Sequence record: PX068456.1
Length of the DNA: 64,000 bases
Reading direction: 5' to 3' (one strand)
Source of the DNA: a phage
A program made the translations under genes and the position numbers. Of the stretch, positions 10,113 through 39,441 are shown piece by piece; the stretch's first letter is position 1; each line of letters starts with the position of its first letter. Below the pieces are notes generated by a model. It saw only the letters and a list, made by a program, of their open reading frames with translations, made no database searches and was not told where the DNA came from.

Positions 10113-10127
10113 CAATCTGTAGTAATT

Positions 10128-10203
10128 TGGTTGATAGTAAGAGAATCGAACTCTTCTCGCAATGCCTTATGAAAGCACTCGAAACGCCAGCTTCACACTA
10201 TCA
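10128..10203 (-). tRNA. tRNA with anticodon CAT (second Met, initiator or Ile2-type)
   Basis: encoded CCA, perfect acceptor stem tgatagt/actatca, T-arm aagag/aatcgaa/ctctt, anticodon loop TTCATAA; D-arm atypical. Confidence 0.5.
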
Positions 10204-10291
10204 ATGGCTAACCCTTTATAACCCGTCTTGGCGTGGTATCCTTAACAGGATGGTAGATATCCGTTGCAAACCCTATGATATCTCTTAGATA

Positions 10292-10376
10292 TGGTGGCTA
10301 AGGTGAGACTCGAACTCACAATCCCTTGGGGCAATACGTTCTAAGCGTATCGTGTATACCATTCCACCACTTAGCC
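10292..10376 (-). tRNA. tRNA-Leu (anticodon TAG), type II
   Basis: encoded CCA, acceptor ggctaag/cttagcc, T-arm gtgag/actcgaa/ctcac, anticodon stem atacg/cgtat with loop CTTAGAA, 14-nt variable arm. Confidence 0.65.
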
Positions 10377-10453
10377 ATAATAAATACACCACTGTAAGAA
10401 GCCTCAATGTGCTATTGACAGTTAACCAAGTCTACTCCTTGGATGGTGATATT

Positions 10454-10528
10454 TGGTGCAGAGAGATGGTAACGATCCATCCTTTCTACCTTTTCAGGGT
10501 AGCACTAATCCGTCTCAGCTATCTCTGC
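10454..10528 (-). tRNA. tRNA-Phe (anticodon GAA), non-canonical T-loop
   Basis: encoded CCA, perfect acceptor gcagaga/tctctgc, T-stem gatgg/ccatc with loop ATCGTTA, anticodon stem ctacc/ggtag with loop CTGAAAA. Confidence 0.5.
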
Positions 10529-10533
10529 AAATT

Positions 10534-10609
10534 TGGTCAGTGCGGCAGGACTCGAACCTGCGACCCGAAGCATCCAAAGCTCCCACGCTACCAACTGCGC
10601 TACGCACTG
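10534..10609 (-). tRNA. tRNA-Pro (anticodon TGG)
   Basis: encoded CCA, acceptor cagtgcg/cgcactg, T-arm gcagg/actcgaa/cctgc, anticodon loop TTTGGAT. Confidence 0.65.
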
Positions 10610-10616
10610 TAAATAC

Positions 10617-10691
10617 TGGCTGGAGATCTAGGAATCGAACCTAGTCATCACGACTTCAAAGGCCGTTGCCTTCCCACTAGGCTAATCTCCA
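10617..10691 (-). tRNA. tRNA-Gln (anticodon TTG)
   Basis: fully parsed cloverleaf: acceptor TGGAGAT, D-stem GCCT/AGGC, anticodon stem-loop ACGGC-CTTTGAA-GTCGT, T-arm CTAGG-TTCGATT-CCTAG, discriminator G, encoded CCA. Confidence 0.7.
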
Positions 10692-10790
10692 ATAAAACTA
10701 AAAATCACTTAAAAAGAACCGCTAGAGTTTGAAGGAGAAAACCATGAGCGAAAAGAGAAATTTTCTCTAGCGATTCCATTTAAATAATCT

Positions 10791-10865
10791 TGGAGCGAGT
10801 AACAGGACTTGAACCTGCACCTGGAGGGTGGAAACCTCATATGCTACCATTAACACTATACCCGC
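10791..10865 (-). tRNA. tRNA-Gly (anticodon TCC)
   Basis: encoded CCA, acceptor with one GU pair, T-loop acttgaa, anticodon loop TTTCCAC, D-loop with GG. Confidence 0.6.
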
Positions 10866-10920
10866 TTAACAATATTACTCTAACATATTATTAGCCCCTT
10901 TGTCAAGAGGCTTTTGATAT

Positions 10921-11244
10921 TTATTTTAAAATAGTAGATGCACCACGTCTGTTTAGATATGCAATAGTAAAATCCAAATCACCTATTTCTTCAGGTTCCC
11001 ACTGACCTTCTAAACCATAACAAGAACAATGATATGCGTGTACTTCATAAAACAAAGATGTTTTCATATCATAAAAATAAACGTGAGATTCACCTTCATA
11101 ATATGCACAATCATAAGTGGCAGAAAGAATTACAATGTTATCCTTATCTAACTCTACTTCATAATATCTTTCAACATCTTCAATATCATCAAAACCATCG
11201 AAAACATTGATATTAAAATATTTCTCTAACTCTTTTTCTGTCAC
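10921..11244 (-). CDS. hypothetical protein embedded in the tRNA array
   Basis: 107-aa ORF between tRNA genes, same strand. Confidence 0.45.
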   Translation of the reverse strand: MTEKELEKYFNINVFDGFDDIEDVERYYEVELDKDNIVILSATYDCAYYEGESHVYFYDMKTSLFYEVHAYHCSCYGLEGQWEPEEIGDLDFTIAYLNRRGASTILK

Positions 11245-11267
11245 ATATACTCCTTTAGAGTTAAAAT

Positions 11268-11342
11268 TGGTGCTCCCACAAGGACTCGAACCCTGATAAG
11301 TTGCTTACAAGGCAACCGTAATAGCCGTTATACGATAGGAGC
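11268..11342 (-). tRNA. tRNA-Thr (anticodon TGT)
   Basis: encoded CCA, acceptor gctccca/taggagc, T-arm caagg/actcgaa/ccctg, perfect anticodon stem gttgc/gcaac with loop CTTGTAA. Confidence 0.65.
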
Positions 11343-11419
11343 AAAATATTTGCTTGGTAGGATTTGATACCTACAATTCTAGAAAATTCTAGAGGTTTCT
11401 ATTAACTCTACAAGCACTA

Positions 11420-11504
11420 TTTGGCGATGGATCAAGGATTTGAACCTTGCTAGAACTTTCGTTCACGGATTAACAGTCCGTCGCCCAACCACTAGGCCAA
11501 TCCA
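11420..11504 (-). tRNA. type II (Ser-like architecture) tRNA whose anticodon reads GTT
   Basis: encoded CCA, discriminator G, perfect acceptor gatggat/atccatc, 3-bp D-stem, perfect anticodon stem acgga/tccgt with loop CTGTTAA, 15-nt variable arm forming a GAAC/GTTC hairpin. Confidence 0.45.
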
Positions 11505-11511
11505 TCTTTAA

Positions 11512-11598
11512 TTTGGTGCAGGTAGTTGGACTCGAACCAACGAAGCCCCGAAGGGCAGGAGATTTACAGTCTCCAGCAATTGCCGCTATGCGATACCT
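11512..11598 (-). tRNA. tRNA-Tyr (anticodon GTA), type II
   Basis: encoded CCA, T-arm gttgg/actcgaa/ccaac, perfect anticodon stem ggaga/tctcc with loop CTGTAAA, 16-nt variable arm. Confidence 0.65.
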
Positions 11599-11603
11599 AC
11601 GTG

Positions 11604-11679
11604 TTTGGTACATCGTGAAGGATTCGAACCTTCGACCTTGGAGTTAAAAGCCCCTTGCTCTACCAACTAAGCTAACGAT
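11604..11679 (-). tRNA. tRNA-Lys (anticodon TTT)
   Basis: encoded CCA, perfect acceptor acatcgt/acgatgt, T-arm gaagg/attcgaa/ccttc, anticodon loop CTTTTAA, D-loop AGTTGGTA. Confidence 0.65.
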
Positions 11680-11815
11680 GTATAAATTATCTTTAAAATA
11701 GCCAGTGTTTGCGGCACTTGACTATGAAGTATTAGGGTATCGGTAAGATGGTGGAGGCCATCTGCCGAAAGTTTACTCTATTAAAGTAAGATTACAAGCT
11801 ACATTAAAGATAACT

Positions 11816-11901
11816 TGGCGGTAGATGTAGGACTTGAACCTACACGCCGTTTCCGACGACAGTTTAGCAAACTGTTGTGGCTACCATTTCACCAATCTAC
11901 C
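11816..11901 (-). tRNA. tRNA-Ser (anticodon GCT), type II
   Basis: encoded CCA, discriminator G, perfect acceptor ggtagat/atctacc, T-arm gtagg/acttgaa/cctac, anticodon stem acagt/actgt with loop TTGCTAA. Confidence 0.65.
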
Positions 11902-11909
11902 GTTCTTAA

Positions 11910-12110
11910 TTATTCAAAACAACCGGAATCTTTTTGTTCTGCTTTTACCATACGAATATTTTTACCATCTTCAGATTGTTGAAGATTAGAATACTCATAA
12001 ACAACTTTATTATCTACAATCTTAACTCCGGTAACAACCTGTCCAATAGTTTTATAATTCATAAAGCTCCTAGTTGAATTTGGAGGAAGATAATGGAGTC
12101 GAACCATCAC
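11910..12110 (-). CDS. hypothetical small protein embedded in the tRNA array
   Basis: 66-aa ORF; its 3' region may overlap the tRNA-Ser(TGA) call, so one of the two may be wrong. Confidence 0.3.
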   Translation of the reverse strand: MMVRLHYLPPNSTRSFMNYKTIGQVVTGVKIVDNKVVYEYSNLQQSEDGKNIRMVKAEQKDSGCFE

Positions 12111-12170
12111 CGTATCGCTACAATGGGCCAGGGTTCAAACCTGGTTGCGCACCGCTGCGCCCTACCTTCC
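12081..12170 (-). tRNA. tRNA-Ser (anticodon TGA), type II, about 90 nt
   Basis: encoded CCA, T-loop agtcgaa, anticodon stem ccagg/cctgg with loop TTTGAAC, about 19-nt variable arm; D-arm parse uncertain. Confidence 0.45.
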
Positions 12171-12233
12171 CGTTATCATACTTTAAATCTAACATAAAAC
12201 TATCTTGCTTGTCAAGTAGTTTTTAAAACTTTT

Positions 12234-12315
12234 TGGTCGGGGTGACAGGATTCGAACCTGCATACTCCAATTACTCGGTTAACGCCTGATTAGAAGTCAG
12301 GTGAGATACACCCCG
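12234..12315 (-). tRNA. tRNA-like, anticodon arm reads TCT (Arg) but no normal D-arm and 23 nt between anticodon and T arms
   Basis: encoded CCA, perfect acceptor cggggtg/caccccg, T-arm acagg/attcgaa/cctgc, stem-loop cctga/CTTCTAA/tcagg. Confidence 0.4.
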
Positions 12316-12384
12316 TTTTCACAGTAACTATAACAAAAAACTAAGTGAATGTCAAGATATTTTTACTAAAATTATTATTTAAAT

Positions 12385-12493
12385 TGAAGCCTAGTTATGG
12401 AATCGAACCATATTTCGTATTTAGTTAGACAAAGCGGTCTAACATATTTTTCAGGCTTTGATGGCCTCGGAATTACCAAATACCCTACTAGGC
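12385..12493 (-). tRNA. tRNA-like element or pseudogene: good 3' half, 5' acceptor complement only about 100 nt away
   Basis: T-arm tatgg/aatcgaa/ccata and acceptor strand gcctagt present, no encoded CCA; matching actaggc at 12487-12493. Confidence 0.25.
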
Positions 12494-12495
12494 GT

Positions 12496-12581
12496 TGGTG
12501 CAAGTGGAGGGATTCGAACCCTCAATCATTTAAGCGTTGCGTTTTAAGCACAATGTGTATCACCAATTCCACCACACTTGC
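12496..12581 (-). tRNA. tRNA-Leu (anticodon TAA), type II
   Basis: encoded CCA, perfect acceptor gcaagtg/cacttgc, T-arm gaggg/attcgaa/ccctc, anticodon loop CTTAAAA, 13-nt variable arm. Confidence 0.65.
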
Positions 12582-12695
12582 ATATAGGAGATGCATAGCA
12601 CCTCCTTTTAAATGGTGGTTCCCCAGGGTTACAATCCCTGCCCTCGACACTTATGAGGTGTGCGCTCTCGTCAGTGAGCTATGGAACCTTGAATA

Positions 12696-13435: not shown

Positions 13436-15169
13436 TTAGTCAACCTGGATGGTTCCCATAGTACGAAGAACCTCTACGTCAACACGGTTGCGGATATCAG
13501 TAAATGTTTCATCACGTCCTTCTACTTGTGGTGTAATAACCTTACCATTCTTGAAGATAACTTGTAACTCATTGTCTTCATCCTGGATATCTTTAAAAGA
13601 AAGATTATCTACAAGAGAAAGATTACCATTGGTATCCTTAACAACCTTAATAAAACCTTTTGCAGAGCGTTTACCAGGATCAGTTTTAGGCTCCTTACTT
13701 ACCAAAATTTCGTGTTCACCGATGATGCTACCTGTTGCTTTAACAGCAAAACCAAAAGTATCTCGTGTATTGAACTGATAAGTATAACTACCAACACCAA
13801 ATACAATATTGGAAGCTGCAAAACCTTTCTTCTTCAGTCGGCGTAAGATCTCGTGTTCTCGTTCAACAGTAATAGAATCACCATAAATCATACCGATATG
13901 CTGATCAAGAACCTTGTAGCCTTTTCGGTTGATAGTACCACCAAACACTTCCCAAAGGATTTGAATAGAACCTACTGCTTCACAATAAGGAATCTCATAA
14001 GTTTCATCAATGCAATCAGCAACACTGCAATCCTGAAGAACATTGTAATACTTATTAACATCAGCCAAATGAACTACTTCAGTGGCTGTCGCAATACCAT
14101 TATTTAAGAGGTCTTCATAGTTATCAAAAGATTCAACATTGTATCCTGCAACAACTTTAACCGGATCTCCTGAATCTGGACGAATAACAAGACGACCATT
14201 TCGTGACATAATGGAATCTTTCAATTCTACCAGAATGCGAGTCAATACAGCCCAATAGTCATAAGAGTCTGCTACATATGAACAAAAACCTTCTGGAACA
14301 ATTTCTTCGATATAACGACGAAGAAACTCTTTTTCTGCTACATAACGAAGCCCATCTACATCATCTTTAAGATGTGGGAAATGTTTCTTCAGATCTTCAA
14401 CAATAGCTCCAATGTTAGTCGTTGCTACTGAATGTTCTGTTGCCGGAATCGAACCTGCAACAAACTGATCATAATCAATACCATAATAATCATGCACAGT
14501 TTCAATAGCCAGAATATTATCTGTTCCTGTGAACGATGCCAAGTGAGCGATACCACTCTTATAACCATCTTCGATATTACTTAAACCACGTAGGCTAAAA
14601 TCATGACACTGGAAGTTAACGTGATCAATATTATCACACGTTGCCATCGCATATGCCATAGCGATACGCTTATACTGAAAAGCTGCTGTGGCATTAGTCA
14701 TTGTCTTCCAAGTTTCATCTGACAACAGTGTTTCCACATAGTTAGTTAACCAAAAGAATTTTTCTAAAGTATTATGCACAGTAAATACAGGAACACCAAT
14801 AGGACACAAAACACCCTCTGGCAGAGATCGAACTTCCAGCGGAAGATAACCTAAGTCGTGCAATTCTCCCCAACATTCAGCAGAAGGAGCAGAAGCACCT
14901 AATGCATTTTTAGACATACGATAAAATTTATTTACTGCTGCACTACGAGACATTTTAAAGAAGCTATCCCACATAGTTACAAGAGCATCAGTGACTGCTC
15001 GACGAATACCTAAAACAATCACACCACGTGCTTCACGATCTGCATAGTGTGCAAAGTTTTTATCATTACGAGGAGTTAAATTAGAGAAAATAAGTTTTGT
15101 ATTTTGGTTGTACATCTGCTTGTGACCAGGTTTGTACCAATCAGTAGCAAAAGGTGCAAAAATATTCAT
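13436..15169 (-). CDS. nadV: nicotinamide phosphoribosyltransferase family protein (NAMPT/NadV-like; alternatively a nicotinamide ADP-ribose transferase, Namat)
   Basis: 577 aa, NAMPT-family length; adjacent to a PRPP-synthetase-like gene on the same strand. Confidence 0.8.
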   Translation of the reverse strand: MNIFAPFATDWYKPGHKQMYNQNTKLIFSNLTPRNDKNFAHYADREARGVIVLGIRRAVTDALVTMWDSFFKMSRSAAVNKFYRMSKNALGASAPSAECWGELHDLGYLPLEVRSLPEGVLCPIGVPVFTVHNTLEKFFWLTNYVETLLSDETWKTMTNATAAFQYKRIAMAYAMATCDNIDHVNFQCHDFSLRGLSNIEDGYKSGIAHLASFTGTDNILAIETVHDYYGIDYDQFVAGSIPATEHSVATTNIGAIVEDLKKHFPHLKDDVDGLRYVAEKEFLRRYIEEIVPEGFCSYVADSYDYWAVLTRILVELKDSIMSRNGRLVIRPDSGDPVKVVAGYNVESFDNYEDLLNNGIATATEVVHLADVNKYYNVLQDCSVADCIDETYEIPYCEAVGSIQILWEVFGGTINRKGYKVLDQHIGMIYGDSITVEREHEILRRLKKKGFAASNIVFGVGSYTYQFNTRDTFGFAVKATGSIIGEHEILVSKEPKTDPGKRSAKGFIKVVKDTNGNLSLVDNLSFKDIQDEDNELQVIFKNGKVITPQVEGRDETFTDIRNRVDVEVLRTMGTIQVD

Positions 15170-15240
15170 AGTTATGTCTCCTTGTTTGTTAATGTGGGAG
15201 TATCTTACTAAGCATACTCCCTATTGTCAACACTTATTAT

Positions 15241-16134
15241 TTAAAAATTCCACACGTATGGAGATACAATTTGTTGTTGCAAATCTGACTGATTCTTAAC
15301 AAGAACACCAGAATCTTCTTGGATGTTATCTTCCCACACATTAAGAGAATGAATGCAGTCAAAGTGCTCACTTAACTCTTTAAGACCTTTAGAAAAGATA
15401 CCGTGCGTAACATATAGCTCAATCTTACCTGCGTTACGAGCACGTAGCACTTTAGCCAATTCGATAAAAGTTCTACCACCATCACAGATATCATCTACGA
15501 TCATCAGGTTACGCTTATTGAAATCCTGTACAGAAATGTCTGTACGAACAATAGCACCTGTTGCGGTATCTCTAACCTTCTCTGCACAGAACACATCTAA
15601 AGACATTTTCTTAGATAATTTAAATATTTTCTTAAGAGCACCACCATCAGGGCTAACAAGAGCAAAATTCTCCATACGTAACTTCCACTTTAAAGTTTCG
15701 TAAGCAATCTCTTCTTGAGGTATTACACAGAGTCTGTCAAACACTGCTGGAGTAACATCACTATGCGGATCAGCAACGATAACACGTGAGAAATTTAATG
15801 AATTAATTATAGAAGCAAATGCTTTAACTCCGAATGCTTCCCCAGGCTCACACACTCTGTCTTGTCGTGCATACGGCACATACAACATGAGTAAATCAAC
15901 ACAATATGGTTTATGATATAGCATATTGTCCAATGCATTCTTAGTCATAACCAAAGTCATCAAGTCTTTAGCAGATCTTACTTCTAAAGTGAGTAAGATT
16001 CTGTCTGTAGTATGATTGAAACCTGATAGATTCGTATCTAACTGAACATGTTGTTCTCCACCAGAGAATGTAAACACTTTAACGTCTACATCAGTAACAT
16101 AACAGTCAACACCATGCAGAATACTAACTTTCAT
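15241..16134 (-). CDS. prs: ribose-phosphate pyrophosphokinase family protein (Prs-like; alternatively an ADP-ribose pyrophosphokinase, Adps)
   Basis: 297 aa with PRPP-binding-loop-like motif MIVDDICDGGRTF. Confidence 0.8.
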   Translation of the reverse strand: MKVSILHGVDCYVTDVDVKVFTFSGGEQHVQLDTNLSGFNHTTDRILLTLEVRSAKDLMTLVMTKNALDNMLYHKPYCVDLLMLYVPYARQDRVCEPGEAFGVKAFASIINSLNFSRVIVADPHSDVTPAVFDRLCVIPQEEIAYETLKWKLRMENFALVSPDGGALKKIFKLSKKMSLDVFCAEKVRDTATGAIVRTDISVQDFNKRNLMIVDDICDGGRTFIELAKVLRARNAGKIELYVTHGIFSKGLKELSEHFDCIHSLNVWEDNIQEDSGVLVKNQSDLQQQIVSPYVWNF

Positions 16135-23698: not shown

Positions 23699-23722
23699 TA
23701 AAGCCCCTTCGGGGGCTTATTG
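23699..23722 (+). terminator. rho-independent terminator
   Basis: aagccccttcgggggctt hairpin then T-rich. Confidence 0.55.
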
Positions 23723-23730
23723 GAGGTATT

Positions 23731-24009
23731 ATGTTAACAGCAGAAGATATCTTTAAACACGGTTTGCGTCAGGTAATCAAATCCTTGAAGAATGCAGGTA
23801 TTGAAGATATCACACAGGAAATTGTTGGTTTAGAAAAAGAAGGTAAGAGAACAGAATTTAAGTTTTACACAGAAGAACAGTGGTTGAGTAATCCGCAAAA
23901 CAAAGCTAATGAGGCTGTTAGTCTGTTTGGTAAATCTTATAAAGGATTTAAATATCCTGATCATATTGTCGAATATGATGGTGTAAAATATTTTGTAGTT
24001 GTTATTTGA
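23731..24009 (+). CDS. hypothetical protein
   Basis: 92-aa ORF with ggaggtattATG. Confidence 0.5.
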   Translation: MLTAEDIFKHGLRQVIKSLKNAGIEDITQEIVGLEKEGKRTEFKFYTEEQWLSNPQNKANEAVSLFGKSYKGFKYPDHIVEYDGVKYFVVVI

Positions 24010-24019
24010 GGAGAAAACT

Positions 24020-24904
24020 ATGTTTGCTAAAAATTTCAAATCTTGCGTAACCCTGATTTCTGGTGATGGTCTGTCTATTTCAGCACTGAACACAGTAACA
24101 GACAAACCGCTTGATTTTGTTGTGGCACAGGGGCAACAAGCACATACCATTGGTCTTGTTCGTTTTGAAGATGATGGTTCCTATGTAAAAGTGTTCTCTG
24201 GTTTAGAGGTTATTAAAGTAGGGCAATCTGTTAAGAAAGTTAACAAGAAGAAAGTTAAACGCATTCTTAATGAAAAACTCCAGGAGATGGAACAAGAGTT
24301 TATTGCTGCAAATCCTACTAAAGAGTTCTTCTTGGACAAAGAAAGCAAAAAAGCAATTGAGGCTGATATTGTGTTTTCTTTGCTCCCAGAAACAGAGGCA
24401 GATGATTTCTATAACTATGTTGTTGTAGACACTGAAAACAGTATTACCTATGTTCTTAATGGTACTAAGAAAATTAGTGAAGATATTGCTGTATTTCTTC
24501 GTGAGGTGTTGGGTACTTTCCCAGTTCTGCCGTTTAGTGTACACGAAGAAGCCATTATTAAAGGTTTTGATACCATCTTAGAAGAACATGAAGCTGAACG
24601 ACTGACCCTGGGTAATTATATTAAACTTGAAGATTCGGAAGGTGTGGTTGTATGGAGTAAAGAGTCCCTTTATGAATCTCGTGCAGTAGAACTTATGGAA
24701 GATGGTAAGCACGTTGTTGCCATTGGCCTGGAATATGACGGCTTCGTTAACTTTATTGTTGATAAAGAATTTAAGTTGAGTGGTATTAAATTCCCTAAAT
24801 ACTTTAATGATGAAGAAGGATCTTTTGAAGCATCTGTCCTTCTGTGCTTTAACGAAATCCGTGGTATTATGCAAGACCTTATCAAGTCAACTATTCAAAA
24901 ATAA
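24020..24904 (+). CDS. hypothetical protein
   Basis: start set to the ATG after gaggag (MFAKNFKS...). Confidence 0.5.
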   Translation: MFAKNFKSCVTLISGDGLSISALNTVTDKPLDFVVAQGQQAHTIGLVRFEDDGSYVKVFSGLEVIKVGQSVKKVNKKKVKRILNEKLQEMEQEFIAANPTKEFFLDKESKKAIEADIVFSLLPETEADDFYNYVVVDTENSITYVLNGTKKISEDIAVFLREVLGTFPVLPFSVHEEAIIKGFDTILEEHEAERLTLGNYIKLEDSEGVVVWSKESLYESRAVELMEDGKHVVAIGLEYDGFVNFIVDKEFKLSGIKFPKYFNDEEGSFEASVLLCFNEIRGIMQDLIKSTIQK

Positions 24905-24907
24905 TAC

Positions 24908-24937
24908 TTGACTTACTAATTTAATATGTGTTAATAT
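24908..24937 (+). promoter_or_regulatory. putative sigma70-like promoter
   Basis: TTGACT, about 18-bp spacer, TAATAT. Confidence 0.35.
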
Positions 24938-24978
24938 GCCTACCTACTTAGTTAGGTGGGCTTTTAAGGAGACACACC

Positions 24979-25191
24979 ATGAAAAAACTTCTTGTCTGTT
25001 TACTTCTAGTAATCAGTTCTTATTCTTATGCTGGTCAAATAACTTTAATTAATTCTGGAGAACAAGTTTCTGGAAGTACAAAATACTGTTTTTACTCTAA
25101 TGGTATGTACGACAAGGTTATAGAGGTTTCTGCAAGTCGTCAGTGTCCCTACACACGAACATTCTCAACAGAGAGTTCAGATGATGAATAG
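24979..25191 (+). CDS. small secreted protein
   Basis: N-terminal signal peptide MKKLLVCLLLVISSYSYAGQ. Confidence 0.5.
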   Translation: MKKLLVCLLLVISSYSYAGQITLINSGEQVSGSTKYCFYSNGMYDKVIEVSASRQCPYTRTFSTESSDDE

Positions 25192-25199
25192 GAGGTAAT

Positions 25200-26318
25200 A
25201 TTAGCGGTTACATTTTAATCCAACCGGAAGACCTGCACAAATATGTTGACGAGAATACAATTCTTGCAATAGACTACGATCAAGTGGCGTTCCAAGCGTC
25301 TTCAGCTTTAGAACAAAGAAAAATCCACGCTGTACACAAGTCTTCCGGTAATGTAAAAGAGTTTGAAACAAGAACAGATTTTTGGGGTAAATCTTCAAAA
25401 AATATTGGAGGATGGTTAGGAGCACTTAACGCGCAACGCGAAGCTGCTGGTAAGAAGTTGTTCTCTAGAGAAGATTTTGAAATAAAAGACGTTCAAATAG
25501 TCCCAGATAATATTTCTTTTACGTTTCAAGCTGCAAAGACAAAAATAACCCAGATGATGGATCACCTAAAACTTCAAAAGTATTGCGGTGTCATCGGGGT
25601 AGGAAAAACCTTCCGGCATTCTTTCAAAATGCCAAAAGAATATAAATCAGAACGATCAGATTTAAGACCAATCCATTTATCAGATACTAAAGATTATCTA
25701 GTTGAAAAACATAACGGTGACGTTGTTACTGGTATTGAGGCAGATGATGCTTTAGAAATCTATGGATATGCAGGGTATAAAGCCTACAAGGAAACTGGTA
25801 AGTTTTCTCATATTGTAGCATCTATCGACAAAGATAGCTTGCACACACCAAGTTTACTCTTTAACTTTTATAAAGAGGATGGTGTTTATAAAAATCCTTG
25901 TATTATTCTGATTGATGAATCTATTGGTGATATCTGGATCGTAGAAAAAGGTAAGAAAAAAGAAATTAAGGGTTGGGGTAGTTACTGGTTAGCTTATCAA
26001 ATGCTAATGGGTGATAAGACAGATAGTATTCGACCTTACCAAGATTTCGATGTTAAGTTTGGAGATATTACTTGCTTTAATCTTATTTCCAAATGTAAAA
26101 CACAGGCTGAACTTTTTCAGACAGTTAAAGATCAGTATTATGAATGGTTCCCAGATGGCGTTAAATTTACTTCTTGGGATGGTGAAGAAGTAGAGATGAC
26201 AACTGACGAATGGATAGAGACAATTTTTCAGTTGGTATATATGAAACGTTGGGCGAATGATGAAACAACTTTTGAAAGTATGCTACAAGCATATATTTCA
26301 GAGCAGGAGGAACATTGA
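25200..26318 (+). CDS. flap endonuclease / RNase H (5'-3' exonuclease family), start uncertain
   Basis: 5'-nuclease motif GIEADDALEIYG; N-terminal ILAIDYDQVAF resembles T4 RNase H ICLIDFSQIAL but lies upstream of the track GTG start at 25284; frame opens at 25200 (ATT) just after taggaggtaat. Confidence 0.65.
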   Translation: MSGYILIQPEDLHKYVDENTILAIDYDQVAFQASSALEQRKIHAVHKSSGNVKEFETRTDFWGKSSKNIGGWLGALNAQREAAGKKLFSREDFEIKDVQIVPDNISFTFQAAKTKITQMMDHLKLQKYCGVIGVGKTFRHSFKMPKEYKSERSDLRPIHLSDTKDYLVEKHNGDVVTGIEADDALEIYGYAGYKAYKETGKFSHIVASIDKDSLHTPSLLFNFYKEDGVYKNPCIILIDESIGDIWIVEKGKKKEIKGWGSYWLAYQMLMGDKTDSIRPYQDFDVKFGDITCFNLISKCKTQAELFQTVKDQYYEWFPDGVKFTSWDGEEVEMTTDEWIETIFQLVYMKRWANDETTFESMLQAYISEQEEH

Positions 26319-27277
26319 GTAAATTAACAGACGAACAGAAAGCCTTGATTGTATCTATGAAAGCACAAGGTTATTCTTCGCGTAAGATTGCACAAGAGGT
26401 GTTGGGAAGTTCTACTAAGAAGAGCACAGTAAATGATTACTTAGCTCGTGTAAATTCACCACATCGCGGTGCTCCGCAAGATAAAGGTGGGCCAGTAATT
26501 AAAATTATTGACGTAGAGACAGCACCGGAGATTGTGTATAGCTTCTCACGTTTCAAAGCCTTTATTGCACCTGAACAAGTTATTCGTCGAGGTTACTTGC
26601 TTTCCTATTCATCTGCTGATTTAGAAACAGGAGAAGTAGAAGGTAAGAACCTTAGCAATTACCCTCTGTTTGACATAGATCATACAGATGATTGGGAATT
26701 ATGTCAAGATCTGTGGCACTTGCTTGACGATGCAGATATTGTGATCGCGCACAACGGTATTAAGTTTGATAAGGCTTATATTAACCAACGTTTTGCTTTT
26801 CACGGTATGGAGCCACCATCACACTATGTTGTAATTGATACACTCAAGGCAGCTAAGAAGCAGTTTGCACTACCTTCTAATGCGCTTAAAGAAATGTGTT
26901 TGTATTTTGATACAGAAAACTTTAAACTTGATAATGAAGGTTTTCCTTTGTGGAAAGCATGTTGTGAAGGAGACAGACACGCCTTCTTCCGTATGCAAAC
27001 ATACAACGATGGTGATGTTGTTTCTCTTAGAGATCTTTACATCAAACTTCGTGCGTGGATTCCACAACATCCTAACGTATCTGCATTCTATGACGATGAA
27101 AAACTTCGTTGTCCTCGTTGCGGTAAAGAGCACCTTGAAGTTGTTCCTGGTAAGGTTTACACAACAGCGGTTAGTACATTCCAAGTGCTAAGATGCACAT
27201 CATGTAATAGCCTGTCTCGTGGACGTGTTAATTTGCGTAGCAAAGAGAAGCGTGTAAACACTGTTATTGGAATTTAA
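26315..27277 (+). CDS. DnaQ-like 3'-5' exonuclease with N-terminal HTH and C-terminal zinc ribbon
   Basis: TTG start after aggagg; DEDD-like motifs IIDVETAP, AHNGIKFD, YNDGDV; C-terminal CPRCG...CTSC. Confidence 0.55.
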   Translation: MSKLTDEQKALIVSMKAQGYSSRKIAQEVLGSSTKKSTVNDYLARVNSPHRGAPQDKGGPVIKIIDVETAPEIVYSFSRFKAFIAPEQVIRRGYLLSYSSADLETGEVEGKNLSNYPLFDIDHTDDWELCQDLWHLLDDADIVIAHNGIKFDKAYINQRFAFHGMEPPSHYVVIDTLKAAKKQFALPSNALKEMCLYFDTENFKLDNEGFPLWKACCEGDRHAFFRMQTYNDGDVVSLRDLYIKLRAWIPQHPNVSAFYDDEKLRCPRCGKEHLEVVPGKVYTTAVSTFQVLRCTSCNSLSRGRVNLRSKEKRVNTVIGI

Positions 27278-27280
27278 TAA

Positions 27281-27307
27281 AAAGGGGCGAAAGCCCCTTT
27301 ATTTTTG
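27281..27307 (+). terminator. rho-independent terminator
   Basis: aggggcgaaagcccct hairpin plus T run. Confidence 0.6.
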
Positions 27308-27315
27308 GAGGATTT

Positions 27316-27717
27316 ATGACTACAGCACTGGATATTCAAATTGATGGTGATCACTACAAACGTATGCGTATGCAACCTTTGGAACTTGCATATCTAATTG
27401 GTGCAACTCCTTGTTTCACTAAGTTAGCTAAGTATGCTTGTCGAAACAAAGGTGATCGTGTGATCAACCTAAACAAAGCGATTCACGTTATTCATATTGA
27501 AAAAGAATTGAGTGATAAATATTACAATATGTTGTATGAAGCCTACCCTAACTTAAAAAATCCTGTAAAAATTGAGTTAGCTAATCAGCTAATTGATTTA
27601 TACACAGACGATGATCTTGTTCGTAAGGCTTTAAAAGCAATGTATAAAGGTAAGTATATTGAAGCAGCAGATGCTATTGAACAATTGAAGGAGAGTGTGG
27701 ATGGCTTCTCACGGTAA
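27316..27717 (+). CDS. hypothetical protein
   Basis: 133-aa ORF. Confidence 0.5.
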   Translation: MTTALDIQIDGDHYKRMRMQPLELAYLIGATPCFTKLAKYACRNKGDRVINLNKAIHVIHIEKELSDKYYNMLYEAYPNLKNPVKIELANQLIDLYTDDDLVRKALKAMYKGKYIEAADAIEQLKESVDGFSR

Positions 27718-27895
27718 ACAATACGGAGAGGGTGAAGTATATAAAATATACAATAAACGTGGAGATAAACTCCTATATACAATCACAATCCCAGAAAACA
27801 TGTGTAAGGCGGGTTTAGACCGTATGCTTTTCTTTAAATATAACATTCCACCTGGAGATTATGTAGCTAAAAAGGTGAGCACTATTGGAAAATAA
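27701..27895 (+). CDS. hypothetical protein
   Basis: start set to the ATG after aaggagag (MASHGKQYG...). Confidence 0.45.
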   Translation: MASHGKQYGEGEVYKIYNKRGDKLLYTITIPENMCKAGLDRMLFFKYNIPPGDYVAKKVSTIGK

Positions 27896-28460
27896 AGAAC
27901 CTAAAGTTATTTGGGGAGATGGAACACCTTGGAAAACTCAAGCAGCCTTTTATACATATTTAAGGGGTTGCTTAAGGAAAGCATGGGTGAGACACCCGAA
28001 TAAGATAAAAAAGATCCAATCTGTACGATTTAAAGCCGATAGGTTGGATAAAGATGGCAATGTAGTTTTAGATAAGAAAACAGGCAAACCGAAACAGGTT
28101 TGGAATTGTCAATGTGAATTGTGTGGACATACAGGAGGTATGAAAGACTTTCAAGTAGACCATATTAATGCAGCAGGTACATTAACCTGTTATGAAGATA
28201 TCCCAAGTTTTGTTTTACGCCTATTGTATGTAACAGAAGACGACCTGCGTGTAGTTTGTAAGCAGTGTAACGCTATCCTAGCTTATGCTGACAAGCACGA
28301 TATGACATTCAGGGAAGCAAAAGCGGAGAAGGAAGCGATAGCTTTATGCCAGTCTAAAAAGGATAAAAATTGGCTAACGAAGCGCGGAATTTCACCAGAA
28401 AGTACAGTAAGTAAGCGAAGAAAACAAATAGTAAAAATTCTTCTTGACGAAGAGAAATAA
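27885..28460 (+). CDS. HNH homing endonuclease
   Basis: TTG start; CELCGH ... DHINAAG ... CKQCN HNH zinc-finger pattern. Confidence 0.6.
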   Translation: MENKEPKVIWGDGTPWKTQAAFYTYLRGCLRKAWVRHPNKIKKIQSVRFKADRLDKDGNVVLDKKTGKPKQVWNCQCELCGHTGGMKDFQVDHINAAGTLTCYEDIPSFVLRLLYVTEDDLRVVCKQCNAILAYADKHDMTFREAKAEKEAIALCQSKKDKNWLTKRGISPESTVSKRRKQIVKILLDEEK

Positions 28461-28471
28461 TAAAGTATTAT
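28444..28471 (+). promoter_or_regulatory. putative sigma70-like promoter upstream of tdk
   Basis: TTGACG, 16-bp spacer, TATTAT. Confidence 0.35.
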
Positions 28472-28505
28472 CGCTCCCACAAACGGGAGCGTTAGAGGAG
28501 AAAAT

Positions 28506-29069
28506 ATGGCTAAACTTTATTTCCGATATAGTCCGATGAACAGTGGTAAAAGCACACATCTTCTACAAACAGCTTGGAACTATAAAGAAAGAAATATGAA
28601 AGTTCTTCTTTTAACTTCAGCTTTAGATACCAGATCTGGTGGTGCTATTGCTTCTAGGATAGGTATTAAAGAGGAAGCAAAACCAGTTAAAACAAAAGAA
28701 GATATGCTGGAAATTTATACACAACTTAAAGAGAATCCAGTAGATGCAGTATTTGTGGACGAATCACAATTCCTAACTAAAGATATGGTTGACATTCTTG
28801 GAGATGTGGTAGATAATTACGATATTCCTGTATTCTGTTATGGACTTAAAACAGATTTTGCTACAGAATTGTTTGAAGGTTCTGAACGGTTATTAGCCAT
28901 AGCAGATTCCATTACAGAATTGAAAAGCATTTGTAAATGTGGAAGAAAAGCTATTTTCAATGCTAGACTTATCGACTCTAAAGAACAGATTGTTATTGGA
29001 GGAGAAGACATTTACGAAACAATGTGTAGAAAATGTTATAACAGGAGAAATAATGCGTCTAGTATGTGA
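28506..29069 (+). CDS. tdk: thymidine kinase
   Basis: P-loop SPMNSGKSTHLL and C-terminal zinc-ribbon cysteines, 187 aa. Confidence 0.85.
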   Translation: MAKLYFRYSPMNSGKSTHLLQTAWNYKERNMKVLLLTSALDTRSGGAIASRIGIKEEAKPVKTKEDMLEIYTQLKENPVDAVFVDESQFLTKDMVDILGDVVDNYDIPVFCYGLKTDFATELFEGSERLLAIADSITELKSICKCGRKAIFNARLIDSKEQIVIGGEDIYETMCRKCYNRRNNASSM

Positions 29070-29643
29070 TTGGGATTTAGTAATAGCTCCAGCGGATATA
29101 GAATGGTTAAATTGGTTAAATGCGGTAAGTAGATCTAATATCAAATTTGATAAGACACATAAAACTGTGCACTATGATATTACGAAATATTTCCCTGATT
29201 TTAAAAAGCAATTTGGTGTAGATCCTTACTCTTTTTGGGATAACCAACATCTATATGATACTATGGGAGTAGTACCTAATAGTACAGATGTTGTTCATCG
29301 TATAATTGCAAATGGAGCTAATATATCTATAGCGAGCCACACTAAGGGTGGACACCTTAGTTCTAAATATAGACACGTAACACGATCTTTAGATAAAGTG
29401 GATTTTAGTAGAACATCTGGTAATGGCTTTTTCGCAACAAAAGAAAAATACTTATTACCTTGCGATGTAACTATTGACGATAGGGCTGAAAATCTTGTCC
29501 TGTTTCCAGATGAAACGTTGAAAATATATTTCAACACTATTTACGAAGATCCATATTTGGAAGAGTTAAAGAAACTTCCTAATGTAATTATCACTGGTTT
29601 AGATAATCAGTGGGAAGAAATTGAAAGTATTTTACTACCTTAA
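29053..29643 (+). CDS. putative 5'(3')-deoxyribonucleotidase (HAD/NT5C-like)
   Basis: start at the ATG after aggag (MRLVCDWDLVIA) giving a DxDxV motif; overlaps the tdk 3' end. Confidence 0.5.
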   Translation: MRLVCDWDLVIAPADIEWLNWLNAVSRSNIKFDKTHKTVHYDITKYFPDFKKQFGVDPYSFWDNQHLYDTMGVVPNSTDVVHRIIANGANISIASHTKGGHLSSKYRHVTRSLDKVDFSRTSGNGFFATKEKYLLPCDVTIDDRAENLVLFPDETLKIYFNTIYEDPYLEELKKLPNVIITGLDNQWEEIESILLP

Positions 29644-29652
29644 GGAGAAATA

Positions 29653-30624
29653 ATGACAAATTCTATTTCAGCAAAAATTATTGCACACTCTCAAACATCC
29701 GAAGGTAAGGATATTGTTACCTTTGAACTTGAATATCCTCGAATCATTCACTCTGAATTGATGACGCATCGTTTGTTTTCTCGTAATGCCGCATCAAGTC
29801 GAGCTATCCCTGTTAAAACTCTGATTGAAATGGTACGGCAATCTCCAGCACGTCCTTATCGTTTTGGTGCTAACCAACCAGGTATGCAAGATAAAGGCAC
29901 AGATCACGATGCCCTGATTGATGCAGGTTACACTGCAAAAGAATGGTGGGACTTGGCTGCGCTAAGTGCTGCACGTTTTGCAGAAGAGTTTGCCCTTGCT
30001 GGGTATCATAAACAGGTTGCAAACCGCCTACTAGAACCATTTCAGCGTATGAAGACTGTAGTAACCACTACAGAGCTAGAAAACTTCTTGTGGTTGCGCG
30101 TAGATGCTGATGCAGATCCTACTATTGAGGCTCTTGCTAAAGAAATTAAAAAACTGTATGAATCTTCTGAACCATATCTTCTTTTCCCAGGGGAATGGCA
30201 TACACCTTACGTTAATCGTGATCGAGATCCAGAAACTGGTATGATCCGTTATTTCTTAGGTGAAACCTTCTCCAACGAGAAAATGTTGACAGAAGATGAA
30301 GCAAAAGCTATTTCAGCTTCTTGTTGCGCTCAGGTAAGTTATCGTAAGTTGAATGATACTAAAGATAAAGCATTGGATATCTATTCTCGTTTGCTGTCTG
30401 GACAAAAGGTACATGCATCTCCGTTTGAACACCAGGCAACGCCAATGAAAGAAATGGATTTGTCAGGATTAAAACAACAGAAAGGTGGTATTAATATTCC
30501 TCCGTTCCCTTCCTCTTGGGAAGAAGGTATTACACATATGGATCGTAAACATCGTTTGTGGAGTGGAAACTTCTGTGGTTGGATTCAACATCGTCAACTT
30601 TTGACGAACCATACAAAATGGTGA
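29653..30624 (+). CDS. thyX: flavin-dependent thymidylate synthase
   Basis: ThyX signature HSELMTHRLFSRNAASSRAIP (RHR...S). Confidence 0.85.
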   Translation: MTNSISAKIIAHSQTSEGKDIVTFELEYPRIIHSELMTHRLFSRNAASSRAIPVKTLIEMVRQSPARPYRFGANQPGMQDKGTDHDALIDAGYTAKEWWDLAALSAARFAEEFALAGYHKQVANRLLEPFQRMKTVVTTTELENFLWLRVDADADPTIEALAKEIKKLYESSEPYLLFPGEWHTPYVNRDRDPETGMIRYFLGETFSNEKMLTEDEAKAISASCCAQVSYRKLNDTKDKALDIYSRLLSGQKVHASPFEHQATPMKEMDLSGLKQQKGGINIPPFPSSWEEGITHMDRKHRLWSGNFCGWIQHRQLLTNHTKW

Positions 30625-35985: not shown

Positions 35986-36183
35986 ATGATGCTAGATCAA
36001 CTGATCAATGCTCCTCGCGTAACAGTAAGTCCAAAAACATTTGCATCACTTTTAGAAGATGCTAAAGAGGTTTATAACTTTACTGAAGAAGAGCTTCCTG
36101 TTCCTGTTGAAAAAGGTTCCAGATGGTTGTTTTATGAAGGTATTATTTTTACCGAAGGGAATAATTGGAAGGAGACTAAATGA
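35986..36183 (+). CDS. hypothetical protein
   Basis: start at the ATG after aaggagg (MMLDQLINAP...). Confidence 0.45.
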   Translation: MMLDQLINAPRVTVSPKTFASLLEDAKEVYNFTEEELPVPVEKGSRWLFYEGIIFTEGNNWKETK

Positions 36184-37169
36184 AATACTTAGTAACAGGT
36201 GGTTTAGGCTTTATTGGAAGTGCGGTAGTTCGTTTCCTGGCTAAAAATACTAAGAATGATATTTACGTTATAGATAAATGGGGTTACGCTTCAGATCCTA
36301 GAAATTTATCAGAAACACCCAATGTAAAGTTTTGTCGTGTTGACTTGACAAATGCGCAGTTAACTGCTAAGATTGTGGCAGATGTTAATCCAGATTATAT
36401 AATGCATCTTGCAGCAGAAAGTCACGTAGATAATTCAATAGCATCACCGAGTGTTTTTATAAATTCAAATATTGTTGGGACATTTAATCTCCTAGAAGCT
36501 GTTCGTTTAATGGGAGATAAATCAAATCTTAAAATGTTCCATCATATTTCAACAGATGAAGTATATGGTGATATGGAAGAAGGGGATTATCCGTTTACAG
36601 AACAGAATCCTTATAAGCCAAGTAGTCCATATGCTGCATCTAAGGCAGCAAGCGATCATTTGGTAAGAGCGTGGCATCGTACTTATGGTATTCCGACAGT
36701 TATAACAAATTGTTCAAATAATTTTGGAGCATATCATCATCCAGAAAAACTAATACCTAAAACGATAACAAATATCTTGATGCATAAACCAATCCCTGTT
36801 TATGGTAATGGTCTTCAAGTAAGAGACTGGTTATACGTTGACGATCACGCAGAAGCATTACACCTAGTAGTAACTAAAGGCAAATCTGGAGAAACATATA
36901 ATATTGGGAGCAGAAACCCTAGAACTAATATTGATGTAATCTATATGATTTGTGATTATATGGATGCGGTGTATCCATCTGAAACAGATGCTTGTAGCCT
37001 CATTGAGATGGTTACAGATAGACCTGGGCATGATTTAAGATACGAAGTGAATCCTTATAAGATTGAAAAGGAATTAGGGTGGAAAGCTAAAGGCACATTT
37101 GAAGAAAAACTTTATTCAACCATTGATTGGTATGTAGATAACAAAGAGTGGTGGGAAAATAAAGTTTAA
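36180..37169 (+). CDS. rmlB: dTDP-glucose 4,6-dehydratase
   Basis: N-terminal [10 protein letters not shown] Rossmann motif and YAASKAASD active-site motif. Confidence 0.85.
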
Positions 37170-37177
37170 GGAGGAGT

Positions 37178-38047
37178 ATGAAAGGTATTATCTTAGCAGG
37201 TGGTAGTGGAACAAGACTTTACCCAGTTACTAAAGGGGTTAGTAAACAACTATTACCAATTTACGATAAACCTATGATTTATTATCCACTCTCTGTCCTA
37301 ATGCTTTCTGGAATTAGGGAAATACTAATAATTACAACACCAGAAGATCAAATTAATTTTGTAAATCTTCTAGGTGATGGTTCTTCTTTTGGTATTTCCC
37401 TACAGTATGCAATACAAGAAAGCCCGAAAGGTTTAGCAGAAGCGTTTATTATTGGTGAGAGCTTTATTGGCGAAGATTCTGTAGCACTTGTGCTAGGTGA
37501 TAATTTATTCTTTGGTCAGAGTTTTGGTAGCATTTTAGATTCTGCTAAAGAACATATTGAAAAGAATGGTGGAGCTAATATTTTTGGGTATCACGTAAAT
37601 GATCCTGAAAGATTTGGTGTTGTTGAGTTTGATTCTGAAGGTACAGTGGTGAGTATTGAAGAAAAACCAAAAACACCAAAAAGCAACTATGCAGTTACAG
37701 GCTTGTACTTTTACGATAATTCTGTTATACAGAAAGCTAAGAGCGTTAAACCTTCTGCTAGAGGGGAGTTAGAGATTACAGATATAAATGAGATGTACTG
37801 GAAAGAAAAGACTTTACGTGTCTGTAAACTAGGAAGAGGTTTCACTTGGCTGGATACAGGAACACATGAAAGTCTTATGGAAGCATCTCAATTTGTTCAT
37901 GCAATAGAAAAGCAACAAGGTATGAAGGTTGCATGCCTAGAAGAGATTGCTTTTAAAAATGAATGGATTACTTTAGACTCTGTAAAAAGTTCTGGAGAGG
38001 TTTTAAGTAAAACAGACTACGGTAAGTATTTACTTAAATTAAAATAA
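37178..38047 (+). CDS. rmlA: glucose-1-phosphate thymidylyltransferase
   Basis: N-terminal [16 protein letters not shown] signature. Confidence 0.9.
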
Positions 38048-38059
38048 AGGGGGAATTAA

Positions 38060-38614
38060 ATGATTCAAGCAACAAAAATCGAAGATTTGTTGATCATTCA
38101 ACCTGACGTTTACGGAGATGAACGTGGCTTTTTCTTAGAAAGTTTTAATCAGGCTTTATATGATCAATACATAGGTAAACAAAACTTTGTCCAGGATAAC
38201 CACTCACGTTCTATTCGAGGAGTTCTACGTGGGCTTCATTTTCAAAAGAAAAACCCACAAGGGAAGTTAGTACGTTGTGTTCGTGGTGAAGTTTATGATG
38301 TTGCTGTAGATATTAGGGTTGGTAGTCCAACATTTGGAGAATGGGTAGGTGTTCTCTTATCTGAAAAGAATAAAACACAATTTTGGATTCCTCCTGGTTT
38401 CGCTCATGGCTTTGTTGTGATTAGCGACATTGCTGATTTTGAATATAAATGTACAGAATATTACGATCCGACTTCAGAGTGTAGTCTTGCGTGGAATGAT
38501 CCAGATATCAATATAGATTGGGGTTTTGATTTAATCTTTAATGATATTAATTTTAAACCTATCTTGTCACAAAAAGATCAGCAAGCCAAAACACTAAAGG
38601 AGATCATATTTTGA
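38060..38614 (+). CDS. rmlC: dTDP-4-dehydrorhamnose 3,5-epimerase
   Basis: 184-aa cupin with RGFFLESF and RGLHFQ motifs. Confidence 0.8.
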   Translation: MIQATKIEDLLIIQPDVYGDERGFFLESFNQALYDQYIGKQNFVQDNHSRSIRGVLRGLHFQKKNPQGKLVRCVRGEVYDVAVDIRVGSPTFGEWVGVLLSEKNKTQFWIPPGFAHGFVVISDIADFEYKCTEYYDPTSECSLAWNDPDINIDWGFDLIFNDINFKPILSQKDQQAKTLKEIIF

Positions 38615-39441
38615 CAAAATTTTTAATCTTTGGTTCAAAAGGTCAATTAGGACAGTCTTTGGCAAAAGTTGCGCCCGAAGATGTTATTTTGATTGAAGCA
38701 AGTGATGTAGACATTACCAACTTTAAAGATGTTATGAATAGTCTTGTACAGCATGTGCCTGATGTTGTTGTGAATTGTGCGGCTTACACGGCAGTAGATA
38801 AAGCTGAAGAAGATGTTAACACCTGTATAAATGTTAATGCATACGGTGCAACAAACATTGCCAAAGCATGTAATGATTTACTGATACAGTTTGTACATAT
38901 TTCAACAGACTATGTTTTTGATGGGCATGTTGCTGGCACAGAAGAGAGTAAAACAAACCCCTTGAACACCTACGGTTACAGTAAACAATTAGGTGAAACT
39001 TTAGTACAAACAGTTTGTCCTACAGCACTTATTATCAGAACAGCTTCTGTTTATAGTGAGTTTGGACATAACTTTTTGAAAACTATGTTGGAACGCTACA
39101 ACGGTGGTCAAAAAGAATTTAATGTAGTATGTGATCATTTATCATGTCCTACTTATGCACCTGATCTTGCAGAAACAATTTTTAAACTTGTAAAAGATGG
39201 TGTAAATAGTAAAATTGTACACTATGCAGGTGCAGATTATATTTCTTGGTATGATTTTGCACGAAAGATATTTCTTGTTATAGATTTATCTGTTACAGTT
39301 AATCCTGTATCTGCTTCAACCTATAATTCCAAAGCAGTCAGACCAGCAACATCTTATTTAAAAACAGATCCTACTTTAAATCCGCGAAGTGTTGATAGCG
39401 GTATTGTAAGAACTTTAACTATACTTTTAAACAAGGAGTGA
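38611..39441 (+). CDS. rmlD: dTDP-4-dehydrorhamnose reductase
   Basis: 276 aa, N-terminal FGSKGQLGQ Rossmann motif; last gene of the rml operon. Confidence 0.7.
   Translation: MTKFLIFGSKGQLGQSLAKVAPEDVILIEASDVDITNFKDVMNSLVQHVPDVVVNCAAYTAVDKAEEDVNTCINVNAYGATNIAKACNDLLIQFVHISTDYVFDGHVAGTEESKTNPLNTYGYSKQLGETLVQTVCPTALIIRTASVYSEFGHNFLKTMLERYNGGQKEFNVVCDHLSCPTYAPDLAETIFKLVKDGVNSKIVHYAGADYISWYDFARKIFLVIDLSVTVNPVSASTYNSKAVRPATSYLKTDPTLNPRSVDSGIVRTLTILLNKE

Follow-up and report, generated by a model that had tools for sequence, protein, structure and literature searches.

The window analysed here, a stretch of 64,000 nucleotides from the phage sequence record PX068456.1, contains at 26315–27277 a gene for a protein of 320 amino acids in which an exonuclease core is combined with a predicted N-terminal helix-turn-helix (HTH) and a C-terminal zinc ribbon. 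This protein is probably, though not by a wide measure of certainty, a stand-alone, metal-dependent 3'-5' exonuclease of the DEDDy type that acts on DNA 3' ends and works together with a 5'-3' exonuclease and a His-Me finger nuclease encoded close by. Judged from its residues and fold, that it should be an active 3'-5' exonuclease is held much more confidently than its biological role. The gene and its parts, all on the plus strand, are as follows.

26305–26310 and 26315–26317, plus strand: Shine-Dalgarno sequence AGGAGG and TTG start codon, read off the sequence
26315–27277, plus strand: whole exonuclease gene, 320 amino acids, TTG start (open reading frame list, PHROG 403, PF13482); the equivalent of PHB05 gp078
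26315–26455, plus strand: N-terminal three-helix HTH, residues 1–47 (modelled helices; motifs SSRKIA and KSTVND)
26495–27064, plus strand: DEDDy exonuclease core, residues ~61–250 (ExoI, ExoII and ExoIII motifs)
26510–26518, plus strand: ExoI, D66/E68
26753–26770, plus strand: ExoII, N147...D152
27002–27016, plus strand: ExoIII, Y230...D234
27098–27238, plus strand: C-terminal zinc ribbon, residues ~262–308 (knuckles C266-P-R-C269-G and C294-T-S-C297)
27281–27306, plus strand: terminator-like hairpin AAAGGGGC-GAAA-GCCCCTTT followed by a T run (consensus scan and direct reading; a pattern match only)

The original prediction, made from the letters of the sequence, had already divided the protein into these three domains, and this division is correct according to the conserved residues, the predicted structure and the Pfam matches of homologues. 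All motifs that it had named are present: IIDVETAP at residues 63–70, AHNGIKFD at 145–152, YNDGDV at 230–235 and the cysteines of CPRCG...CTSC (C266, C269, C294 and C297). In a first alignment of 47 sequences, with identities down to 28%, the residues D66, E68, D152, Y230, D234, C266, C269, C294 and C297 are invariant. The set was then enlarged to 215 sequences, an exhaustive profile search contributing 148 representatives. All 215 members have D152, Y230, D234 and the four cysteines, and 209 have D66/E68, the other six being N-terminally truncated. An RNase H-like fold with D-x-E in ExoI, D in ExoII and D in ExoIII places the core within the DEDD (DnaQ-like) 3'-5' exonuclease superfamily. The DEDD residues, on whose alignment the original prediction had staked itself, do align when the family profile is compared with the PDB as well as in the alignments.

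The subclass, however, is another one than predicted. The third motif, Y230-N-D-G-D234, reads Y-x3-D and therefore, judged by this motif, the core is of the DEDDy subclass and not DEDDh. DEDDy comprises the editing domains of family A and B polymerases, RNase D and the WRN exonuclease, whereas DnaQ/epsilon, RNase T, oligoribonuclease, ExoI, ExoX and TREX are DEDDh. A DEDDh assignment (H-x4-D) was considered and rejected: the invariant Y-x3-D sits at this place and the alignment has no conserved His in the region. Thus, 'DnaQ-like' names the wrong subclass for a protein whose nearest folds, in a structure search of the model, are the exonuclease domains of family B polymerases. RNases scored well below these polymerase domains in the same search. 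The family profile searched against the PDB matches the exonuclease domains of PolC, epsilon and family B polymerases; such a profile was required, as the single sequence gave only marginal epsilon matches (E ~0.5). Within Pfam, the protein matches PF13482 (RNase_H_2; YprB/MrfB-like) with 27.9 bits at a gathering cut-off of 22, and the same family is matched by 45 of the 47 homologues. Signals for DNA_pol_B_exo1 are weak in the protein itself, and two PolB-exonuclease families are clear in 19 and 16 of the 47 homologues, respectively. The RNase H-like superfamily was surveyed in 2014, and that survey already has a phage PF13482 cluster beside the PolB exonuclease clusters (PMC3985635).

Identity to the family B editing domains (archaeal PolB, 5mdn/4flt; yeast Pol epsilon, 4m8o; E. 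coli Pol II, 3k57) is only 14–18% and, in contrast to the family B polymerases, the phage exonuclease is a separate protein of 320 residues which lacks a polymerase domain and has gained an HTH and a zinc ribbon in addition. MrfB (YprB) of B. subtilis belongs to the same Pfam family and gives a weak profile match (PDB 8un9, E 0.022). It is a stand-alone, Mg2+-dependent exonuclease degrading linear double-stranded DNA (dsDNA), which its authors modelled on the Pol epsilon exonuclease domain (10.1101/426304). MrfB carries a C-terminal TPR domain and no HTH, whereas the phage exonuclease has a zinc ribbon and an HTH; furthermore, MrfB acts with the helicase MrfA in the repair of mitomycin C damage, but no MrfA-like helicase gene lies beside the phage gene. 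The phage proteins phiKMV gp24 / LKA1 'YprB RNase H-like', ICP1 gp189, Ramsey gp38 and Girr gp37, which fall within PHROG 403 and its relatives, share 28–38% identity, with core and zinc ribbon aligned, and the LKA1 protein is the top match in the viral structure library BFVD (E 1e-30).

The AlphaFold2 model of the whole protein has a mean pLDDT (predicted local distance difference test) of 93.6. It shows three helices at the N-terminus (residues 6–17, 22–30 and 33–46), a low-confidence linker (pLDDT <50 at residues 51–54) and then the alpha/beta core. At the C-terminal end the strands 274–283, 288–294 and 300–306 surround both cysteine pairs with pLDDT >90. With its CPxCG...CxxC knuckles and a three-stranded sheet in the model, this module is a predicted zinc ribbon, and homologues match the zinc-ribbon Pfam families Lar_restr_allev, Zn_ribbon_PaaD and Zn_ribbon_3. 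For the N-terminus, HTH_38 is matched by 12 of the 47 homologues at E <0.01 (best 4e-6), and other homologues match HTH_23, GerE, HTH_SB or HTH_7 in this part, models of the transposase/resolvase/LuxR type. When just the N-terminal 59 residues were used as query, the sole homologue obtained was a fragment of 71 amino acids, identical to the query.

The region 24000–30000 of the window, which was used for phage comparison, is 99.3–99.6% identical to members of Justusliebigvirus, phi92-like E. coli myoviruses such as ECGD1, PD06 and PHB05. In PHB05 (99.3% identical over this region) the equivalent gene product gp078 carries the RefSeq name 'DNA polymerase exonuclease subunit'. The TTG start at 26315 is supported by the alignment, since homologues with 75–80% identity keep the N-terminus from residue 1 onward. 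This start overlaps the TGA stop (26316–26318) of the upstream 5'-3' exonuclease gene, and the overlap suggests that the two exonuclease genes may be translationally coupled. Only 4 nt past the stop codon of the 3'-5' exonuclease gene begins the hairpin at 27281–27306, a probable end of the transcription unit as far as such a pattern can tell. A second terminator-like hairpin lies at 23701–23726; both (the first one at 27281–27300 in the consensus scan) are GC-rich with T runs and are consensus matches only, the one at 23701–23726 being readable on both strands. Together they flank an RdgC-like gene and the two exonuclease genes, which suggests that these three may form one transcription unit. 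The neighbours that matter here are the following.

23999–24904, plus strand: RdgC-like recombination-associated protein (Pfam RdgC, E 2.5e-19; PHROG 724)
25284–26318, plus strand: 5'-3' exonuclease / flap endonuclease family, 344 amino acids (PHROG 107, E 2.5e-54)
27885–28460, plus strand: His-Me finger (HNH-type) nuclease (PHROG 1985, E 3e-66)

The gene directly upstream had been read as a flap endonuclease gene and does belong to this family. Beside the PHROG 107 match, a profile of its homologues matches the PDB entry 9l56, '5'-3' exonuclease family protein' (E 2.6e-5), and on these two matches we take it for a 5'-3' exonuclease. PF02739 is found in several of its homologues; a BLASTP comparison with T7 gp6 was not significant. 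An HNH endonuclease gene is located downstream, as predicted, but it is not adjacent, because the open reading frames (ORFs) 27316–27717 and 27695–27895 intervene. The first of these (plus strand, 133 amino acids) follows directly after the hairpin and has a full-length match to PHROG 10946 (E 5e-67), with no match in Pfam or NCBIfam. Another small ORF, at 24979–25191 on the plus strand between the RdgC-like and the 5'-3' exonuclease genes, encodes 70 amino acids with a signal-peptide-like N-terminus, MKKLLVCLLLVISSYSYAG; this is an odd site for a secreted or membrane protein.

The gene order is shared with other phages. In PHB05 it runs gp079 'exonuclease', gp078, two small hypothetical genes, gp075 'HNH endonuclease', thymidine kinase, ThyX and ribonucleotide reductase. 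The HNH gene holds a slot which in other phages is taken by endonuclease VII. In Nankokuvirus and in Seunavirus 4MG an exonuclease gene, an HNH or endonuclease VII gene and the family member are followed by thymidylate synthase and ribonucleotide reductase genes. In the phiKMV-like phage PT2 the 5'-3' exonuclease and endonuclease VII genes directly precede the family member gp24, with overlapping stop and start codons; gp24 has an N-terminal module unlike that of the exonuclease described here. The same order is annotated in other phiKMV-like phages (PMC11596505, PMC3765740). We surveyed the neighbourhood of 83 loci, 80 of them fetched from IMG/VR, by searching their ORFs with locally built hidden Markov models (HMMs). 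A 5'-3' exonuclease gene together with an endonuclease VII/HNH gene, on the same strand and within ~4 kb, was observed at 29 of the 83 loci, and at 22 of the 49 loci whose flanks extend for 4 kb or more in either direction. Two sequence families occupy the endonuclease slot: 23 ORFs resemble T4 endonuclease VII, and 10 are of the PHROG 1985 type, two of these being the window copy and the near-identical one of PHB05.

Comparable sets are known from other phages. T7 (gp6 and gp3) and T4 (RNase H, endonuclease VII and DexA) have exonucleases and a junction-cutting endonuclease encoded in their DNA-metabolism regions, which serve recombination, primer or flap removal and the breakdown of host DNA. 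The likeness is one of functional analogy only and no homology to DexA is claimed; T7 is not known to have a separate 3'-5' exonuclease. According to the T7 record, recombination and the breakdown of the host chromosome both require gp6.

The fold, the N-terminus of DNA-binding type and the recurrent 5'-3' exonuclease and endonuclease VII/HNH neighbours point to DNA 3' ends, and from these we infer the substrate and a possible mechanism. By analogy with the editing sites in polymerases of families A and B, two Mg2+ ions would be bound by the carboxylates of D66, E68, D152 and D234, and Y230 would orient the water molecule for its attack. Beside the core, the four-Cys zinc ribbon may be a structural or DNA-clamping module, and the flexibly linked HTH may tether the exonuclease to duplex DNA. 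Its partners would be the putatively coupled 5'-3' exonuclease of the flap endonuclease family and the nearby His-Me nuclease, and the three nucleases could trim 3' tails and flaps in recombination-dependent replication. Alternatively or in addition, host DNA might be broken down to nucleotides for the thymidine kinase, ThyX and ribonucleotide reductase whose genes are adjacent. As far as the biological role can be inferred from conservation and gene context, the protein most likely trims DNA 3' ends in phage recombination, replication or host-DNA breakdown. Girr gp37, a distant member from a mycobacteriophage of cluster F1, is moderately toxic on overexpression (PMC11075535); with this toxicity and the dsDNA degradation by MrfB, experimental support is indirect and comes from distant relatives only.

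Several observations weigh against this interpretation. The exonuclease itself scores 14.3 bits with HTH_38, below the Pfam threshold of 27, and the isolated HTH model (pLDDT 77.5) has no significant match in the PDB (best E 0.73); the top ones among these non-significant matches are HTH DNA-binding domains, for instance those of GcrA, Tc3 transposase and LuxR-type regulators. The product of 27885–28460 matches endonuclease VII models weakly (PHROG 1035, E 9e-4; Pfam Endonuclease_7, E 0.068), and in hhalign its family reaches a probability of 53% against the endonuclease VII group over the Cys/His core. As this is only a weak link between two separate sequence families, treating the window HNH nuclease and T4-type endonuclease VII as one family was rejected. 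A detectable pair of 5'-3' exonuclease and endonuclease is missing in more than half of the metagenomic loci, so the association is lineage-limited, or the HMMs missed divergent partners. At some loci the family gene is placed near terminase, portal, endolysin or glycosyltransferase genes, and in mycobacteriophages of cluster F1 it is found between lysis and integration genes. To some degree, proximity within a replication module is expected for any DNA enzyme. Furthermore, DNA, RNA and short oligonucleotides are inseparable as substrates by sequence and fold, and in the literature we found no biochemical characterisation of any family member.

The most serious alternative, although an improbable one, is that the protein serves as a proofreading exonuclease subunit in trans, for either the PolA of the phage or the Pol III of its host. 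This is what the RefSeq and PHROG label 'DNA polymerase exonuclease subunit' implies, and polymerase editing domains are indeed the nearest fold. Epsilon models match weakly over the ExoII region, and in phiKMV-like phages and Nankokuvirus the family gene is located 3–5 kb from the polymerase gene. Moreover, mycobacteriophage 'DnaQ-like' proteins are toxic when overexpressed, from which the authors infer interference with the replisome (PMC11797047). Against this stands the phage polymerase itself. The PolA of PHB05 (859 amino acids, encoded outside the window) can be aligned with the N-terminus of T7 gp5 (31% identity), and its FDIES, GHNIINFD and YCIYD align with the editing motifs D/E, HNxxxxD and YxxxD of T7 gp5, so that all DEDDy editing residues are retained. 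In this phage lineage the polymerase and exonuclease genes are ~60 kb apart. The NCBIfam epsilon models reach 20–28 bits at cut-offs of 196–245 and match only residues ~127–204. Compared with E. coli DnaQ (Pol III epsilon), which is DEDDh, the phage protein is DEDDy and far below the equivalog cut-offs, the catalytic general base being Tyr instead of His. A C-terminal polymerase- or clamp-binding segment of the DnaQ type was not recognised (no detailed search for one was made), and the HTH and zinc ribbon have no obvious use in a proofreading subunit. The family also occurs where no DNA polymerase is annotated: the mycobacteriophage Ramsey, with its record examined from 25.5 to 58.6 kb, has none but does encode the distant member gp38. 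Since PolA has its own editing domain, the epsilon scores are low and the examined part of the Ramsey record has no annotated polymerase, the exonuclease is, on these comparisons, probably not the proofreader of the phage polymerase. The original prediction had likewise set the protein apart from standard proofreading subunits, and in this it is supported. The database name is probably wrong.

The PHB05 polymerase (gp153; L003 38149–40728) is longer than T7 gp5 (859 versus 704 amino acids), and its editing domain has an insertion of ~35 residues, DKYLFDGRPYIETDGKYEYRLEEYEHLEY..., between ExoI and ExoII.

It had also been proposed that the nuclease might degrade cyclic-nucleotide defence signals. 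In its wider form, this alternative makes it an anti-defence nuclease that destroys cyclic or linear oligonucleotide messengers, or the DNA of retrons or defence reverse transcriptases. We consider this very unlikely: the fold, the DNA-binding type of the N-terminal module and the neighbours all point to DNA 3' ends instead, and the cyclic-nucleotide proposal is left without support. A PADLOC search gave a match to the candidate defence protein PDC-S48 (E 1.6e-5), which would speak in favour; it is weak and local, restricted to the ExoII segment, and was rejected as evidence for a defence or anti-defence function. Searches of Pfam, PHROG, NCBIfam and PADLOC matched no known anti-defence family, including Acb1, Apyc1 and the ring nucleases. 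The latter proteins have 2H-phosphoesterase, metallo-beta-lactamase or CARF-type folds, as against the RNase H-like fold of the exonuclease. Its best structural matches are polymerase editing domains and not small DEDDh oligonucleotidases, and the family is a conserved part of the DNA-metabolism module in very different phages, temperate mycobacteriophages included, rather than a variable accessory gene.

Least likely of all is RNA 3'-end processing in the manner of RNase D, which is DEDDy too, for instance in maturing the 16 phage tRNAs clustered in the window or in degrading host transcripts, given that the structure search scores RNases well under the exonuclease domains of polymerases, that the neighbour genes encode DNA enzymes, that Pfam searches with the exonuclease and 47 homologues revealed neither HRDC nor another RNA-binding module, and that the family occurs in podoviruses of 41–44 kb such as the phiKMV-like phages, for which few or no tRNA genes are known.

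The three-domain architecture is not unusual, being standard in a family with thousands of members. The exonuclease is an ordinary, already annotated member of this very large phage family: it matches PHROG 403 with E 5.8e-108, residues 5–319 of 320 corresponding to profile positions 3–319 of 321, which is well outside what chance would give. By tblastn, relatives are found in 1,587 phage records, 608 of them from mycobacteriophages where they are labelled 'DnaQ-like'; others belong to phiKMV-like podoviruses (PT2 gp24), ICP1 (gp189) and rV5-like and PAK_P-like phages. The exhaustive profile search gave 7,563 clusters at 50% identity with E <= 1e-3 and 3,052 with E <= 1e-30. Exonuclease core and zinc ribbon are universal in the family. 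The N-terminus varies: an HTH of the SSRKIA/KSTVND type is present in most members from large myoviruses, many short members have no HTH, a few members carry a CxxC...CxxC module in its place, and PT2 gp24 has an unrelated extension of 87 residues there. Four cluster representatives (P0197, P0208, P0260 and P0271; 571–587 amino acids) carry an insertion of ~255 amino acids exactly within the ExoII motif, following the pattern ...HN / C...HN / Cxx FD...; the equivalent point in the window is at nt ~26756–26757, between N147 and G148. It has the hallmarks of an intein, namely Cys as its first residue, His-Asn at its end, Cys at position +1 and a GFxxGEGS block resembling LAGLIDADG. Such intein-like insertions are typical of functionally critical sites in DNA-metabolism enzymes, and this one supports functional constraint. 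A paper on serine-integrase directionality factors (PMC11795197) deals with a different, calcineurin-like exonuclease and is irrelevant to this family.

The records MG065639, MG065645 and MG065662 match the window at 24000–30000 and the exonuclease protein. Those named 'Campylobacter phage A150/A145' share 99.3% identity with these E. coli phages across 6 kb, and that named 'Campylobacter phage A142' has a relative of the exonuclease at 40% identity, beside coliphage matches. The host labels of these records look doubtful.

Apart from the exonuclease region, the window contains the tRNA cluster at 9812–12688 on the minus strand, with 16 genes by ARAGORN, 13 of which are backed by Rfam above the gathering score, and one further tRNA-like Rfam match at 12237–12315. 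Two adjacent genes at 13436–16134 (minus strand) are, according to the PHB05 annotation, those for nicotinamide phosphoribosyltransferase and ribose-phosphate pyrophosphokinase; NAD-salvage gene pairs of this kind are reported to counter NAD-depleting defences. At ~36180–39441 (plus strand) the PHB05 annotation gives four genes of a dTDP-rhamnose-type pathway, for a nucleotide-sugar epimerase, glucose-1-phosphate thymidylyltransferase, dTDP-4-dehydrorhamnose 3,5-epimerase and a second epimerase. Their products might modify DNA or the host surface with sugars.

A bolder view of the exonuclease may be offered tentatively, and we think it rather unlikely to hold. The HTH-exonuclease-zinc-ribbon protein, the putatively coupled 5'-3' exonuclease and the endonuclease VII/HNH enzyme might constitute a three-nuclease machine conserved across unrelated lineages (phiKMV-like podoviruses; phi92-, rV5- and PAK_P-like myoviruses), which would attack both strand ends simultaneously, either to destroy host DNA or to process branched intermediates of replication and recombination; or else the exonuclease might have an unrecognised anti-defence substrate. 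The practical value of the finding is modest and nothing in it will surprise the specialist. However, no biochemistry was found for a family of ~3,000 clusters, so that a single assay would inform thousands of annotations, and the repeated occurrence beside a 5'-3' exonuclease and a junction-type nuclease provides a concrete, testable hypothesis on the processing of DNA ends by these phages.

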